DNA of 64,000 nt from an uncultured Gemmatimonadales bacterium. GTDB taxonomy: Bacteria > Gemmatimonadota > Gemmatimonadetes > Gemmatimonadales > GWC2-71-9. How positions within the stretch are numbered: the stretch's first letter is position 1; each line of letters starts with the position of its first letter. The stretch covers positions 352,001 to 416,000 of the forward strand of contig CAVSQW010000012.1 in assembly GCA_963730185.1 (NCBI GenBank). The letters are read 5' to 3'. A program made the position numbers. This document shows positions 12,001-24,000 of the stretch, in pieces.

Positions 12001-15000
12001 CAGCCAGCGACCGTCCCGGCTCAGCTCGAAGCGGCCGACCCCGTCCTTCGCGTCGGTGACCCGCCGCGCTTCGCCTCCATCCGGCCGCATCACGTAGAGC
12101 TGATCGGGCGCCTTGGCGCCGGAGCCGTCGCGGTCCGACGAGAACACGAAGAACCGGCCGTCCCGCGACCAGCGCGGGTCGTTCTCGCTCTTGGCAGGGG
12201 TAAACGTCAGCTGCCGGGCCGACGAGACGCCGCCCGACGTCGACACCAACCAGATGTCCGTATCCCGCCGCGCCGCCTGCCAGTCGGGGACCGACAGGGT
12301 GTACAGCATCCAGCGCCCGTCGGGGCTCAGATCTGGTGACCCCGCCCGCTGAAGACGCTGGAGGTCGAGGAACGTCATCGGGCGCTGCTGCGCCACGGCC
12401 GCGTGCCTGGGGACGATCGCGCCGGCGATCGCGGCAGCGAGGAAAACCGCACGGGTCATGCTCGGCTCCGAGGCGAAAGGGCATTCATGAATTGTTAGGC
12501 GGCTGAAATCGGCGCGGAGCGCCTGTCATGAATCTAGCCGCTCCCTGGCCCCACGCCATTCGGGGTTGCAAACTGCTCGGCCCCGTCGCCGGCGCCCGGG
12601 TGCAACTGCCAGCACGCCGGAACGACCTCGATCCCAAGGGGTCAACTCTCGGTCCTCGTTGCTGGGTCGATCCGTTGCACAGGATTCGCCGGATTGTCCC
12701 GATTCGTTACACCGGCTTCGGATCTTCTGCAGCCTGTGTGTGTTACCACGTCGGTGCACGTCAATAGCGCGATCCTTGCTACAGGACAACTACGGAGTTT
12801 CGCTCGATTCCAGATTCCCGTGAACGGAGCATGAACACCGACCGATGGTGACCTCCCCGCCGCGGGCACCGGCCCGCTCAGGCCACCCCAGCCGCTCGTT
12901 CCGAGCGGTCTGGCGCCGACTGGCGCTGGTCGCGGCGTTCGGATCCGCTCCGCTTGGGTTGGCTGCGGCGCAGCAGCAGATCACCCAGGCCGATCCCAAC
13001 CCCCACGGCAAGCTCAATACCCCGTGCGCCACCTGTCACACGGCGGACGGGTGGAAGCCGGCCCGGATCGACCGGACTTTCGATCACGGAAAGACCGGCT
13101 TTCCGCTGGTGGAGTCGCACGCGGCCGTCGCCTGCACCAGCTGCCACACCTCGCTCGAGTTCTCCAATGCCCCGATCGCCTGCGCTTCCTGTCACCAGGA
13201 CGTGCACCAGGGCGAGTTCGGGACCACCTGCGACCAGTGCCACAACGCCCGGGCGTTCAACGACCGGACCGCGATGGCGCAGAACCACGCGCTCACCCGC
13301 TTTCCGCTCGATGGTGCCCACCGTGACGTCGACTGTCGGAGTTGTCATGCCTCGTCCGGCGGGGGCACGTTGGCTTTCAAGGGCGCGCCGACTCAATGCG
13401 TCGGGTGCCACCAGGCCGACTATGCCCGCACTACCACGCCGCCGCACAAGGCGTCGGGGTTCCCGACGGATTGCACTACCTGTCACACCAACCTGACGTG
13501 GCAGGGAAGCGGCTTCGATCACAACACAACCCAGTTCCCGCTCACCGGCGCGCACCAGGCGGCCGTGTGCCAGGACTGCCACCAGGACGGCATCTACAAG
13601 GGCAAGTCGACCACCTGCGTCAGCTGCCACCAGACCAACTACGACCAGACCGCGACCCCGCCCCACAAGAGCGCGGGATTCGCAACCGACTGCGTCACCT
13701 GCCACACCACCGTCACCTGGCAGGGGGCACAGTTCGACCACAACACCACCCAGTTCCCGCTCACCGGCGGGCACCAGGCCGCCGCCTGTCAGGACTGCCA
13801 CAGGAACGGCGTCTACAAAGGCCTGGCCGCCACTTGCGTGAGCTGCCACCAGACCGACTTCGACAAGACCACCAACCCGAACCACCGGTCGGCCAGCTTT
13901 CCGACCGATTGCACCACCTGCCACACCACCATCACCTGGCAGGGCGCGACGTTCGACCACAACACCACCCAGTTCCCGCTGACCGGGGCCCACCAGGCCA
14001 CGGCCTGTCAGGACTGCCACAAGAACGGGGTCTACAAGGGGCTGGCCACTACCTGCGTGAGCTGCCACCAGACCGACTACAACACCACCACCACGCCCAA
14101 TCACCAGTCGGCCGGGTTCCCGACCGACTGCACCACCTGCCACACCACCGTCACCTGGCAGGGGGCACAGTTCGACCACAACACCACCCAGTTCCCGCTG
14201 ACCGGGGCCCACCAGGCCACGGCCTGCCAGGACTGCCACAAGAACGGGGTCTACCAGGGGCTGGCCGCCACCTGCGTGAGCTGCCACCAGACCGATTTCA
14301 ACACCACCACCAACCCGAACCACCAATCGGCCGGGTTCCCGACCGACTGCGTCACCTGCCACACCACCGTCACTTGGCAGGGAGCACAGTTCGATCACAA
14401 CAGCACCCAGTTCCCGCTAACCGGGGCCCACCAGGCCACGGCCTGTCAGGACTGCCACAAGAACGGGGTCTACAAGGGGCTGGCCACCACCTGCGTGAGC
14501 TGCCACCAGACCGACTACAACACCACCACCAACCCGAACCACCAGTCGGCCGGGTTCCCGACCGACTGCGTCACCTGCCACACCACCGTCACTTGGCAGG
14601 GAGCACAGTTCGATCACAACACCACCCAGTTCCCGCTGACCGGGGCCCACCAGGCCACGGCCTGTCAGGACTGCCACAAGAACGGGGTCTACAAGGGGCT
14701 GGCCACTACCTGCGTGAGCTGCCACCAGACCGACTACAACACCACCACCACGCCCAATCACCAGTCGGCCGGCTTCCCGACCGACTGCACCACCTGCCAC
14801 ACCACCGTCACCTGGCAGGGGGCCGCGTTCGATCACAACAGCACCCAGTTCCCGCTAACCGGGGCCCACCAGGCCACGGCCTGTCAGGACTGCCACAAGA
14901 ACGGGGTCTACAAGGGGCTGGCCACCACCTGCGTGAGCTGCCACCAGACCGACTACAACACCACCACCAACCCGAACCACCAGTCGGCCGGCTTCCCGAC

Positions 15001-21000: not shown

Positions 21001-24000
21001 CGGGCGGCGCCAGGTAGTACGGGGCTCCGAGGACGGTCACGGCAAGCAGCAGGCTCACCGACGCGATGACCGGCGTCCAGGAAGGGCCCCTGCGGCGAGC
21101 GGGAGGGGCCGTCGCGGCCTTCGGCGAGGCCGGGGGCGCCGCCGCGCGCCCCCCAAGGCCTGGCCCCGGATGGAGCGGCGTCACCGGTCGGCCGAGGGCC
21201 GGCTGGCTGGGGCGAACGGTCGAATGCAGCTGCTTCGCGGACATGGATTCCCTGGCTTCGAGCTACCCCACTCAAGGCACAAAGTGTGCGAGATGGAGAC
21301 GCGCGGTCGTCATCTTGCTTGTACACCGTAAGTTGTTCCATGACAACGAGATGAACGACTGTTTTTCGCCTCGTTGTCATGAAATGACGTCACGAATCAT
21401 TACAGTAGGAACGGCCCGTTACCTCTCGGCGGGAATTCGGCCATGCTGATTGACGCGGTGTTCGCCGCCGTACTGCTCTTCGCCATCACCACTCACCTCC
21501 TGGGCCACCGCCGGAAGGAGCGGGCCGCCCGAGAAGCGGGCGTGAAGGTCGGCCTCGCCGGTGACGGGCCGCAGGGGCAGCACCCGCACATCGAGATCGA
21601 CGATTGCATCGGCTGCGGCGCCTGCGTCACGGCGTGCCCCGAGGGCGACGTGCTGGCGGTCATCGGCGGCAAGGCCGGAATGGTCAACGGGCACAAGTGC
21701 ATCGGTCACGGTCTCTGCGCGGAGGCCTGTCCGGTCGGCGCGATCGAGATCGTGATGGCGCCGCCTTCCATGTCGGCCGACCTGCCCGCGCTTACGCCGG
21801 AGTACGAGACGTCGGTCGAGAACCTCTTCGTCGTCGGCGAGCTGGGCGGGCTGGCACTGATCAAGAACGCGGTGAATCAGGGCCGCGACGCGGTCGACAC
21901 GATTCTCGAGCGGCTTCCCCGACTCCGGCATCGTCCGGACGTCGGCCCGCCGCCGCTCGACCTGGTGGTCGTCGGGGCTGGTCCGGGCGGCATCTCCGCC
22001 TCGCTCCGAGCCCAGGAGCAGGGCCTGAGCTACCTGTGCCTCGAGGCCGAAGACCTGGGCGGCACGGTGGCGAAGTACCCCCGCCAGAAGCTGGTGATGA
22101 CCAGCCCGGTCGAATTCCCGATGTACGGAAAGTTCAAGAAGCTGGAGATCACCAAGGAGAGTCTCTTGGCGCTCTGGACCAGAGTGGCCGAGACCACGGG
22201 CGGACGGATCCATACCCAGGAGCGGGTCGAGGAGATTCGGCCCGAGGCGACCGGCCGGTTCACCGTGCGCACAGCCAAAGGCGAGTACCAGACGTTGGCG
22301 GTGGTCCTGGCCATCGGCCGCCGGGGCACGCCCCGGAAGCTGGGCGTTCCGGGCGAGGAGCTCCCTCACGTGATGTACAGTCTGCTCGACGCCGAGGCCT
22401 ACACCGGCCGGCGGATCCTGGTCGTGGGCGGCGGCGACAGTGCCGTCGAGGCGGCGATGGGCCTGGCGCACCAGAAGGGCAACCGGGTGGTCCTCTCCTA
22501 CCGGAAGGGCGCCTTCAGCAGGCTCAAGGACCGGAACCAGAAGCGCCTCCAGGACGCGCTCAAGGCCCGACAGCTCGAGGTGGTCTTCGAGTCGGCCCCG
22601 GTCGAGATCCGCCCCGGCACCACCGTCCTCGACGTGGCCGGCGCGCGCCGTGAGGTCGCCGCCGACTACGTGTGGGTCTTCGCGGGCGGCTCGCCCCCCA
22701 AGCCGTTCCTCGAGAAGATCGGCATCCGGTTCGGCCGCCTGGAGCTGAGCGACGCCGCCCACGCTGAAGCCGAGGCCTCGGGCGGGCGGGTCGCGGCCGC
22801 CTGAGCCAGGGGGGCCCCCCGGCTCAGGGACGCTTGACGGGGTCCGGCACCGGCGGATAGAGGCCGGCGTCCGCCAGCCGCCGGTAGAACGCCTTCAGGT
22901 CCGCCAGGAACCCGTTGACGTCGTCCACCGCTCGGGGCACCTCCCGGCGCACCTGATCCACGGACTGGAGGTCCATCCGGGTCGGGGGCGCCATCGCCCC
23001 GCCGATGTTCCCGGCCACCATCCCGACCTTGAACGGCAGCACCTGTCGGAAGATCGCGAAATCGAACTCGAACGGCTCGTCGGGGTTCCGGACGCCGAAC
23101 CGTTGGCGGAGCGAGTCGAGCCGGGTCACGAGCGAGTCGAGGCCGGCCCGGATCGGCCCGGGCACCTTGGTGGAGTCGGCCAGCTCCTTCTTGACGTCGC
23201 GGAGCTGAGTGTTGGCCTGGCGGACCGCGTCGCCGGCGTCCGCGGTGGCGGCCTGGAGCCGCTGGAGCTCCTCCAGGATCCGTTGACGACTCTGCCGATC
23301 CGCTTCGGTGATCTGGATGTCCGGATCGCCGCGGACGTTCACCGGCTTGACCGCCACCTGGGTCCCGTTCACCACCAAAGCCACCTGGTAGGTGCCGGGC
23401 AGCACCACCGGGCCGGGCGTCCCTGGCTCGCCCCCACCGCCGCCGAACAGCGCGGCCAACCCACCCCCACCACCCCCACTCCCCTTCCGGGCCGGTTCGA
23501 TCGGGTTGCTTTGCAGGTTCCAGACCACCGTGTGGACGCCCGGGCTCAGCTTGTCGGCCACCGCCTTGCCCTTGATCGTCCGCACCTCCGCCCCGGAAGC
23601 GTCCCGGACCACCAGCCGGAGACTGTCCGCCTTGGACTTCAACGAATAGGCGATCACCGAGCCGACGGGAGGGTTCTCCCCGAGCCACTGCATGTCGCCC
23701 TCGAACACCCGCTCGCGGTCCTGGGCCGGTGACCGATAGACCGCGGCGGGCACGTCGAACAGGAAGGCGCCGGTGGCGGCCCCGGCGGCGGCGTACTGCT
23801 GGATCGGCGCCAGGTCGTCGAGGATCCAAAGCCCCCGCCCGTGGGTGGCCAGGATCATCGCGTTGTCGCGCGGGTGGAGCGTGATTTCGTAGACCGGCAC
23901 GGTCGGGAGGTTGGCCCGAAGCCGGCCCCAGCTGGCCCCGCGGTTGGTGGTGACGTACACGCCGGTCTCGGTCCCGAGGTAGAGCACGTCGGGATTCTTG

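Follow-up and report, generated by a model that had tools for sequence, protein, structure and literature searches.

What do the genes at positions 12845-22804 of the window, the whole stretch of 64,000 nucleotides of Gemmatimonadales DNA analysed here, build together: an electron path across both membranes, running in which direction, and of a kind not described before? They encode two multihaem cytochromes, the first with 37 CXXCH motifs, together with a barrel, a membrane protein of five helices and a cytoplasmic flavoprotein with two [4Fe-4S] clusters, and in the present genome the set is made up of two convergent units, with these features:

12845-15709, plus strand: c-type cytochrome of 954 residues with 37 haem motifs, a putative barrel-associated "wire" (Pfam, CXXCH count)
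13460-15493, plus strand: tandem array within the 37-haem gene, period 219 bp, 9.3 copies, 89% matches
15706-17346, plus strand: predicted outer-membrane barrel of 546 residues with a signal peptide and 22 strands (AlphaFold2)
17361-18200, plus strand: double-zinc-ribbon protein with one transmembrane helix and a predicted periplasmic C-terminal part, start codon uncertain
18214-20228, minus strand: 23-haem cytochrome, probably periplasmic, split in the assembly (CXXCH count in two frames)
19980-19984, no strand: C5 homopolymer at which the 23-haem gene changes reading frame (frame comparison)
20228-21244, minus strand: predicted inner-membrane protein of 338 residues with five transmembrane helices and invariant motifs
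21443-22804, plus strand: membrane-anchored flavoprotein of 453 residues, probably cytoplasmic (Fer4 and Pyr_redox_3)

The preliminary description had listed the 37-haem cytochrome, a 22-strand barrel with a signal-peptide-like N-terminus and the ending YRF, a polytopic membrane protein lacking a Pfam match, and the Fer4 and Pyr_redox_3 flavoprotein; all four were recovered, the barrel by an independent AlphaFold2 model and Foldseek search.

The flavoprotein starts with one transmembrane helix and is placed in the cytoplasm because positive residues come after this helix. Its ferredoxin domain has motifs for two clusters, the second being CxxHxxCxxxCP, and its FAD/NAD(P) domain is thioredoxin-reductase-like, with no CxxC pair in this flavin part. 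Among solved structures it is closest to YpdA, thioredoxin reductases and ferredoxin-NADP reductases of the thioredoxin-reductase type. The membrane protein has the invariant motifs W135-x3-H139-x13-H153 in helix 3, S175-G-x-x-G179 in helix 4 and W307-x3-H311-x13-H325 in helix 5, so that its four invariant histidines form two H-x13-H pairs, and a helical, probably cytoplasmic insert of about 110 residues lies between helices 4 and 5. WX3HX13H in helices 3 and 5 with SGXXG in helix 4 is the signature published for the inner-membrane protein of the porin-cytochrome systems PCC3 and PCC4, and in their description of it He et al. 2017 read two b-haems, like those of the ferric reductase domain; the same description suggests quinones, which might be an alternative partner of the present protein (PMC5566968). 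The protein is predicted from its motifs to be a transmembrane electron relay with two b-haems. It has no match above threshold in Pfam, and among 17 homologues the sub-threshold matches are to DUF4405 (10), Ferric_reduct (9) and Ni_hydr_CYTB (7), which are all two-haem cytochrome b families. No fold match supports a cytochrome b fold, which counts against the explanation favoured here.

All 74 cysteines of the 37-haem cytochrome lie inside CXXCH motifs, and the protein, which has a Sec-type signal peptide and no lipobox, has 25.8 residues per haem and 16.8% threonine. The presence of 76 histidines for 37 haems, with only three methionines, fits bis-His ligation. The Pfam Cytochrome_C7 model matches 11 stretches with 155 bits, and a comparison with PDB sequences gave no match at E<=1e-3. 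The unit of the tandem array is a 73-residue module with three haems and CXXCH spacing of 32, 16 and 25 residues; the NCBIfam nanowire_3heme model reaches 34.4 bits on the locus, under its cut-off of 40. Geobacter GSU1996 is likewise a polymer of c7-type three-haem domains, but has four domains, while the present protein has 9 near-identical 73-residue units. The 37-haem and 23-haem cytochromes hold about 60 haems in total, and the genome has cytochrome c maturation genes.

The barrel protein has a small N-terminal beta domain at residues 46-114, and the AlphaFold2 model (22-sequence alignment, mean pLDDT 74.9) has 22 strands between residues 148 and 545. Its C-terminal phenylalanine is invariant in 22 homologues, and the gene begins with a GTG that shares bases with the 37-haem stop codon (GTGA). 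Foldseek returned 312 PDB matches to this model at E<=1e-3, of which the 44 listed are all outer-membrane barrels (PapC/FimD ushers, Occ porins, AlgE), with a best E among those listed of 1.2e-9 for PapC/FimD ushers and TM-scores of only 0.22-0.37. Searches of Pfam and NCBIfam with the barrel gave no match at E<=0.01.

Gene linkage was counted in 80 loci with the membrane protein as starting point, where loci with room are those with enough sequence downstream. The flavoprotein gene is beside the membrane-protein gene in 72 of the 80, an ORF with exactly 23 CXXCH follows in 60 of the 63 loci with room, and among the 47 loci in which 9 kb or more follow the membrane-protein gene the barrel is found in all 47 and the four partners together in 43. 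Searching from the barrel, the membrane protein and the flavoprotein are present in 17 of 20 loci, the other three being cut by contig ends. The set is kept in distant families of the phylum (L048, L049). The larger cytochrome varies between 8 and 58 haems among relatives. An inversion that had been suspected to be an assembly matter is the convergent layout, which is not a misassembly because the relatives G311 and G197 and 8 of 53 further barrel-holding loci have the same arrangement. A search of 400 other Gemmatimonadota genomes found homologues of the barrel in 77 at E<=1e-3 and in 73 at E<=1e-10, a share equal to that given in the preliminary description; within the same taxonomic family 60 of 166 genomes have one, and within the genus 2 of 6. 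With only 77 of the 400 sampled genomes and 2 of 6 in the genus, the barrel family is an accessory trait, which counts against the explanation favoured here. The cultured Bacteroidota species Emticicia oligotrophica DSM 17448 carries a homologous operon on a plasmid, with genes for CcsBA, a homologue of the membrane protein in which both motifs are present, a flavoprotein of 40% identity (E 8e-112), cytochromes of 23 and of 40 haems, the latter 44% identical to the 37-haem protein, and a homologue of the barrel (E 1e-10).

The design is already known as a prediction. It was put forward under the name PCC3 in 2017, with Slit_0867-0870 and Slit_1446-1449 of Sideroxydans lithotrophicus ES-1 among the examples (PMC5566968, PMC9900912), and the earlier view of an undescribed kind of system does not hold, the architecture and the membrane-protein signature being those of PCC3. 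PCC3 as described there has four parts, which are an inner-membrane protein of about 300 residues, a porin and two cytochromes, one periplasmic and the other larger and rich in repeats, in a gene order that agrees with most relatives of the present cluster. The periplasmic cytochrome has 21-27 haems (23 here), the larger one 10-35 and up to 85 (37 here) and is rich in Thr, Ala and Gly in both, and the inner-membrane signature is identical, with five helices; this likeness is drawn from described content, haem counts, order and motif, not from sequence homology to the Sideroxydans proteins. The described systems are from Proteobacteria, whereas the present one is from Gemmatimonadota with a homologous operon in Bacteroidota, is split into convergent units and has 22 barrel strands against up to 42 predicted membrane strands (PMC5566968). 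The present cluster also has a conserved FNR-like FeS flavoprotein partner, which the passages on PCC3 consulted here do not include; He et al. 2017 use the words FAD, flavoprotein and ferredoxin nowhere in their main text (PMC5566968).

PCC4 and the porin-less pairs of He et al. 2017 are described with the same inner-membrane signature and with a second redox protein, of FeS type, adjoining it; such a pair is found on a Methylophaga plasmid, where a relative of the membrane protein is paired with an FeS protein and cytochrome c, without a porin. PCC4 differs in that description by its three small periplasmic cytochromes (4, 5 and 10 haems) with no very large one, and by an FeS partner of the pfam13247 type instead of a flavoprotein. 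The Group-1 porin-cytochrome clusters from karst (PMC13264449, 2026) also have a large multihaem cytochrome adjoining a porin of about 20 strands, and ferredoxin-NADP reductase genes are near 7 of 11 of them in karst metagenome genomes, although the section that presents them describes no membrane protein of this kind and no mechanism, and leaves the phyla unnamed. MtrCAB of Shewanella and MtoAB/PioAB follow the same logic, a multihaem cytochrome insulated by an outer-membrane barrel, but no family-level match to MtrCAB was found (DmsE/MtrA 53 bits against a cut-off of 192, OmcA/MtrC 22 against 209) and the present barrel has no Pfam family. Mtr is fed by quinol dehydrogenases, while the feed proposed here is the flavoprotein with the two-haem protein. 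In ferric reductase domain proteins (NOX, FRE, pfam01794), as described, helices 3 and 5 carry two H-x13-H pairs for two b-haems, and a cytoplasmic-side NAD(P)H/FAD module serves electron export, as is proposed here; they differ from the present system, in which a separate, thioredoxin-reductase-like protein with two FeS clusters forms the flavin module, the membrane protein scores under the Pfam threshold (12.4 bits against 28) and the insert separates helices 4 and 5.

The locus quite probably encodes a trans-envelope electron conduit, a reading proposed before, which the gene content fits and the linkage, stronger than known, favours, while its novelty is lost to PCC3. That it is a PCC3-type conduit with the cytoplasmic flavoprotein at its inner end we consider slightly better than an even bet. 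NAD(P)H, the entry point suggested earlier, which fits the flavoprotein and the predicted two-haem protein, would reduce the FAD of the membrane-anchored flavoprotein, whose two FeS clusters would pass electrons to the cytoplasmic-side b-haem (His139/His311) and, through the membrane, on to the b-haem of the periplasmic side (His153/His325). The 23-haem cytochrome, long enough to span much of the periplasm, would then deliver them to the 37-haem repeat cytochrome, which is made with the barrel and probably threads through it, and from there they may reach insoluble or large extracellular acceptors such as Fe/Mn oxides and humic substances. This outward flow from NAD(P)H has about an even chance of being right; it is favoured because the membrane potential is inside-negative, which promotes outward electron movement.

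It is rather unlikely that the same hardware conducts inward, with extracellular Fe(II), reduced humics or minerals as donors and, as acceptors, periplasmic reductases (e.g., NapA-like) or, by way of the two-haem membrane protein, quinones or the flavoprotein. Reduction of NAD(P)+ by Fe(II) would be uphill and against the membrane potential, and the hosts here and Emticicia are, as we take them, heterotroph lineages. The 2026 survey argues on the same ground for electron export (PMC13264449). A cyt4/cyt5 pair that adjoins the flavoprotein gene in about 11 of 80 loci speaks for inward flow, and on contig C8 of the same genome that pair is part of an operon made up of a NapA-like Mo enzyme, two cytochromes, an FeS protein and an NrfD/DsrP-like protein. 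PCC3 came to light in bacteria that oxidise Fe(II), was initially proposed to serve that oxidation, and is an uptake route in the models of PMC5566968 and PMC9900912, but both PCC3 clusters of Sideroxydans ES-1 are reported as down-regulated on Fe(II) (PMC8788666).

An operon for a NapA-like periplasmic reductase abuts the cluster in some relatives, which would fit periplasmic and not extracellular electron sinks, and the 37-haem protein, with its plain Sec signal, may stay periplasmic because it has no lipobox, which weighs against the conduit. These proteins could then form a network that stores or distributes electrons without crossing the outer membrane, as a capacitor, a role proposed for such proteins in passages of PMC11495043 and PMC9900912, or as a feed for N and S reductases, with the barrel serving other transport; the porin-less Methylophaga relative agrees with it. 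We hold this improbable, given the barrel gene in every one of the 47 loci with room, its start inside the end of the large-cytochrome gene, and the retention of both together across phyla.

The PCC3-type conduit would be broken in the present strain if the frameshift of the 23-haem gene were real, which weighs against it. The second cytochrome had been given 20 CXXCH; its multihaem nature stands, and the count is 23. The gene, which starts with an ATG overlapping the membrane-protein stop codon (TGATG), has an N-terminal piece at 20228-19981 with the signal peptide and 2 CXXCH, and a second piece at 19980-18214, in another frame, with the remaining 21. Five-base homopolymers are a common place for assembly errors, and the one-base shift at the C5 run is probably such an error. 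Decay of the locus to a non-functional conduit here, whatever its role elsewhere, agrees with the frames meeting at 19980 and with the patchy trait in the genus, but is improbable, as both halves are open and conserved with all 23 motifs intact, one related soil-metagenome contig has an extra C at the run, and the remaining genes of the set are all intact.

A second set was proposed on contig C8, and its cytochromes have 8, 18 and 16 CXXCH as first counted. The ORF there called barrel-like, which has a signal peptide, was rejected as a detectable relative of the barrel family (hhalign probability 0.6%). The double-zinc-ribbon gene is a recurrent neighbour of such clusters, lies between the barrel and 23-haem genes in 8 of 8 convergent loci, and has a paralogue that adjoins the second set.

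The main set in the window consists of genes for a 37-haem cytochrome, a 22-strand barrel, a 23-haem cytochrome, a five-helix membrane protein and an iron-sulfur flavoprotein. Its flanks encode an S9 peptidase and a BNR/sortilin-type protein, which look unrelated to it. Because the G+C content of the region is 66-72%, many spurious open frames occur there. The genes, in window coordinates, are the following.

Genes of the main set and the zinc-ribbon gene among them
12845-15709, + strand: 37-haem cytochrome, 954 residues (CXXCH count, Pfam)
15706-17346, + strand: barrel protein, 546 residues, without family match
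about 17361-18200, + strand: zinc-ribbon protein with one membrane helix
18214-20228, - strand: multihaem cytochrome (23-haem), frame broken
20228-21244, - strand: membrane protein, 338 residues, without family match
21443-22804, + strand: flavoprotein with Fer4 and Pyr_redox_3 domains, 453 residues

The set has the architecture of PCC3, a porin-cytochrome c cluster type. According to three papers (PMC5566968, PMC9900912, PMC8788666), PCC3 combines a porin and an inner-membrane protein some 300 residues long with two cytochromes. One of these, called "extracellular", is repetitive, rich in Thr, Ser, Ala and Gly, and has 34 haems at the median; the other is periplasmic, with a median haem number of 21 (range 21-27 in Gallionellaceae). 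In Sideroxydans lithotrophicus ES-1, the same papers give the order inner-membrane protein, periplasmic cytochrome, extracellular cytochrome and porin, and both PCC3 clusters of this strain (Slit_0867-0870 and Slit_1446-1449) are down on Fe(II) (PMC8788666). Every comparable feature is present here: a porin gene adjoining a multihaem cytochrome gene (start/stop overlap, predicted barrel fold), a second, larger, repeat-rich cytochrome of low complexity (37 CXXCH, 9.3 units, 16.8% Thr), a periplasmic cytochrome within about 21-27 haems (23 CXXCH, both frames read) and an inner-membrane protein of matching size (about 300 residues) and helix number (five), whose helix 4 has SGXXG and whose helices 3 and 5 each have WX3HX13H. 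The likeness is one of described features. The system is not an undescribed kind, since architecture and motif signature match a type predicted in 2017. The 22 strands given here by AlphaFold2 compare with up to 42 predicted in PCC3, a number that comes from a different predictor and is not a strict criterion. In passages of two papers on Gemmatimonadota or Gemmatimonadetes and porin-cytochrome systems, no description of this cluster was found.

Comparison with family models excludes membership in Mtr. The DmsE/MtrA decahaem cytochrome model TIGR03508 scores 53.1 bits, far below its cut-off of 192.2, and the barrel matches no Pfam or NCBIfam family at E<=0.01, hence no MtrB/PioB family. MtrB is also absent among the matches listed for the barrel in the structure searches; a likeness to it may nonetheless exist.

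Residues invariant in 17 homologues of the membrane protein are W135-x3-H139-x13-H153, S175-G-x-x-G179, W307-x3-H311-x13-H325, H90 and H308. Hydropathy and the predicted model indicate five helices and put one motif each on helix 3, helix 4 and helix 5; between the last two, about 110 residues form a helical insert on the cytoplasmic side. The charge distribution would place the N-terminus inside and the C-terminus outside. He et al. (PMC5566968) ascribe the same signature to the inner-membrane proteins of both PCC3 and PCC4 and read it as binding two b-haems like the ferric reductase domain. The pairs H139/H153 and H311/H325 follow the ferric-reductase pattern of two H-x13-H (or x12) pairs on two helices and would bind two b-haems. 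Sub-threshold Pfam matches of the homologues, to DUF4405 (10/17), Ferric_reduct (9/17) and Ni_hydr_CYTB (7/17), all point in one direction, to two-haem cytochrome b families. Membership of PF01794 is rejected by its gathering score (12.4 bits versus 28; 9/17 homologues sub-threshold, best E 0.025).

Fold searches of the membrane protein are uninformative: its model (pLDDT 73.1) has no PDB match by Foldseek at E<=1e-3, and the wide VIA search returns only generic helical bundles, the best being ABC-transporter membrane domains (Z 10.3). Dcytb is found at Z 6.6, but aligned to the cytoplasmic helices and not to the haem core. A complex predicted for residues 50-338 with the flavoprotein scores 0.21, the mark being 0.32, and speaks neither for nor against contact. 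The family is large: at E<=1e-3 it comprises 3661 representative clusters, of which 508 reach E<=1e-30, and its members are unnamed or labelled "hypothetical protein". Three single metagenome proteins combine the N-terminal portion of the membrane protein with Fer4 and Pyr_redox_3 domains (P0181) or with cytochrome c7 domains (P0249, P0262); in all three the second WX3HX13H is missing, so a frameshift or faulty gene calling may have produced them, and they are set aside as evidence. An apparent fusion with the 23-haem cytochrome in stop-to-stop frames of relatives is discarded too, since the two genes lie in different frames.

The flavoprotein is built of an N-terminal membrane helix, a basic stretch, a two-cluster ferredoxin domain and a flavin/NAD(P) domain. 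The FAD and NAD(P) binding fold is recognized by Pyr_redox_3 (133 bits versus 30), PDB relatives include 7a7b (E 1.4e-21) and ferredoxin-NADP reductases, and the nearest kin of the flavin/NAD(P) domain are YpdA, thioredoxin reductases and ferredoxin-NADP reductases of the thioredoxin-reductase type. No curated equivalog fits (YpdA 149 bits versus 339.9, TrxB 75.6 versus 343), and no redox-active CxxC occurs outside the ferredoxin domain. In one subtype of relatives, a zinc ribbon replaces the membrane helix and is fused to the flavoprotein N-terminus. The second ferredoxin motif (residues 86-97) reads CxxHxxCxxxCP, with His at the position of the second Cys. This His is at least 90% conserved among 17 homologues, which suggests that one end of the iron-sulfur pair is a cluster with His ligation, or one that is atypical in another way. 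The flavoprotein is a conserved partner here, whereas the main text of He et al. (PMC5566968) does not mention one for PCC3. In a 2026 survey of karst metagenome genomes, 11 clusters combine a large cytochrome with a porin of some 20 strands, and 7 of them have a ferredoxin-NADP reductase gene nearby (PMC13264449). No literature that joins PCC3, flavoprotein and cytochrome was found.

The 546-residue protein was proposed earlier to be a 22-stranded outer-membrane barrel, and prediction agrees. The AlphaFold2 model (22 homologues, mean pLDDT 74.9) shows a small beta domain (residues 46-114), then a linker of low confidence and 22 strands (148-545). Foldseek gives 312 PDB matches at E<=1e-3, of which all 44 listed are outer-membrane barrels with low TM-scores, and the wide VIA search reaches Z 14.9, with TonB-dependent transporters, likewise 22-stranded, aligned over 350-370 residues. 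The C-terminal Phe is invariant in the homologue alignment, and the gene starts at a GTG that overlaps the 37-haem stop codon. The genome has no barrel paralogue at E<=0.01.

All 74 Cys of the 37-haem protein lie inside its 37 CXXCH motifs, and its 76 His against only 3 Met fit bis-His ligation of the haems. The protein has 25.8 residues per haem, a Sec-type signal peptide without lipobox and no PDB sequence match. It contains nine near-identical units of 73 residues with three haems each and a CXXCH spacing of 32/16/25, which correspond in the DNA to 9.3 tandem copies of a 219-bp repeat. As matches amount to 89%, the copies are not identical, and gross misassembly is not obvious. Among relatives, the barrel-adjacent cytochrome varies from 8 to 58 CXXCH, and its haem number seems to change by gain and loss of the three-haem unit. 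Relatives in which it has up to 58 CXXCH in one ORF are locus L033 of the related genome G197 (4397-8830) and loci L114 and L130.

The second cytochrome, first counted with 20 CXXCH, has 23 once both of its frames are read; the ORF first counted has no signal peptide. A frame starting from the ATG that overlaps the membrane-protein stop carries a signal peptide and two more CXXCH and ends at 19981; the main frame takes over at 19980, and the switch falls inside a C5 run at 19980-19984. Orthologues have 23 CXXCH and read straight through the switch site, and one related contig, from a soil-metagenome run, has one extra C at this run. The frame switch is probably a homopolymer error of the assembly; that the frameshift is real and the locus is decaying in this strain is possible.

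The locus is real, and its conservation is strong. Of 400 other Gemmatimonadota genomes sampled, 77 have the barrel family (4 of the 77 matches are weak and partial). They are distributed over six families as 60/166, 11/93, 3/3, 1/3, 1/2 and 1/30, and the barrel was not found in six further families (0/5, 0/7, 0/70, 0/4, 0/4, 0/13); in the same genus it is present in 2 of 6 genomes. Around 20 barrel matches, 17 loci have the membrane protein and the flavoprotein, and the other 3 are cut by contig ends. The best 80 of 169 confirmed membrane-protein loci come nearly all from Gemmatimonadota metagenome genomes, three being labelled Acidobacteriota. The flavoprotein is present in 72 of these 80, a 23-CXXCH ORF comes next in 60 of 63 with room for it, and among the 47 with at least 9 kb downstream of the membrane-protein gene all have the barrel and 43 have all four partners. 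The usual layout (34 loci) is a divergent flavoprotein gene followed by the genes for the membrane protein, 23-haem cytochrome, variable cytochrome and barrel, and nine loci are fully co-directional. The inverted order in this genome was suspected to be an assembly matter, but this convergent layout is found in 8 loci, each with a zinc-ribbon gene after the barrel, and in the nearest relatives G311 and G197. Features particular to the window are the frameshift in the 23-haem gene, the split into two convergent units and the nine-unit array of three-haem repeats. Public sequencing runs match in two soil metagenomes (0.09 and 0.05 of sampled words), both as contigs of relatives, and no RNA run is among the matches listed.

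A related operon is carried by a plasmid of a cultured type strain in another phylum.

8818-21402: operon EMTOL_RS21085-RS21110 on plasmid pEMTOL02 (NC_018749.1) of Emticicia oligotrophica DSM 17448 (Bacteroidota)

The gene order is CcsBA, membrane-protein homologue (281 residues, both WX3HX13H motifs and SGXXG), flavoprotein (40% identity), 23-haem cytochrome, 40-haem cytochrome (927 residues aligned with the 37-haem protein at 44% identity) and barrel homologue (538 residues, E 1e-10). The operon begins with a fused CcsBA of 1028 residues, a protein of cytochrome c maturation, so the kit carries its own haem attachment machinery, and it ends with a GW-dipeptide-domain protein. A search for Emticicia and multiheme found no literature; the cultured strain makes an experimental test of the PCC3 kind practical. 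On a Methylophaga plasmid, a weaker relative of the membrane protein lies with an iron-sulfur protein and a cytochrome c, with no porin, which resembles the porin-less pairs mentioned by He et al. (PMC5566968, in excerpt).

In the favoured flow, electrons would pass from NAD(P)H to FAD, two iron-sulfur clusters, two b-haems, 23 c-haems and finally 37 c-haems in the barrel. Haems are about 1 nm apart in known multihaem wires, and at this distance a chain of 23 could cross much of the periplasm and one of 37 could extend past the outer membrane. Inward electron uptake is possible, as is a purely periplasmic role; export outward is favoured because the flavoprotein is cytoplasmic and of NAD(P)H type, because the membrane potential helps outward movement of electrons, and because the hosts are presumably heterotroph lineages. 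A tentative and somewhat doubtful reading of outward export goes further. The flavoprotein and the two-haem membrane protein would work together as a NOX-like exporter that takes electrons from NAD(P)H independently of quinones, connected to the cell surface by about 62 haems (2 b, 23 and 37). This self-contained kit would be mobile between phyla, being plasmid-borne with its own CcsBA in Emticicia, would serve aerobic soil heterotrophs as a redox vent to minerals or humics when oxygen runs out, and would have its outer wire tuned from 8 to 58 haems by gain and loss of the 73-residue unit. Gemmatimonadota are common soil bacteria of poorly known physiology. If true, the conduit would give them and the many other lineages with the membrane protein an unrecognized route through anoxic spells and would drive iron, manganese and humic redox cycling. 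In contrast to the Mtr and Geobacter pathways, its electrons would not pass through the quinone pool.

Also particular to this genome, companion cytochrome and NapA-like clusters are set apart on another contig, C8 (locus L132).

332054-338725 (L132 10060-16725): cytochrome set 2, four genes
about 324755-330902 (L132 2755-8902), - strand: NapA-like operon

Set 2 encodes an 8-haem protein with a lipobox (LAGC), an 18-haem protein with two N-terminal membrane helices, a secreted ORF of 498 residues whose start overlaps the 18-haem stop, and a 16-haem protein. The secreted ORF had been called barrel-like; by hhalign it has no detectable relation to the barrel family. Set 2 lies directly beside the main-cluster flavoprotein gene in at least nine relatives (e.g. 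L059, L063, L070, L071, L087, L088, L098, L105), so the two sets probably work together. The NapA-like molybdoenzyme scores 674 bits, below the NapA cut-off of 904, and is accompanied by 5-haem and 4-haem cytochromes, a DsrO/NrfC-like iron-sulfur protein and a DsrP/NrfD-like membrane protein (400 bits, above the cut-off of 350). The 4-/5-haem ORF pair that marks this operon, the only part scored, adjoins the flavoprotein gene in about 11 of the 80 related loci. Beside each multihaem cluster, at 17361-18200 of the window and at 9088-9897 of L132, lies a gene for a double-zinc-ribbon protein with a single membrane helix. The two proteins are paralogues and may be regulators or assembly factors.
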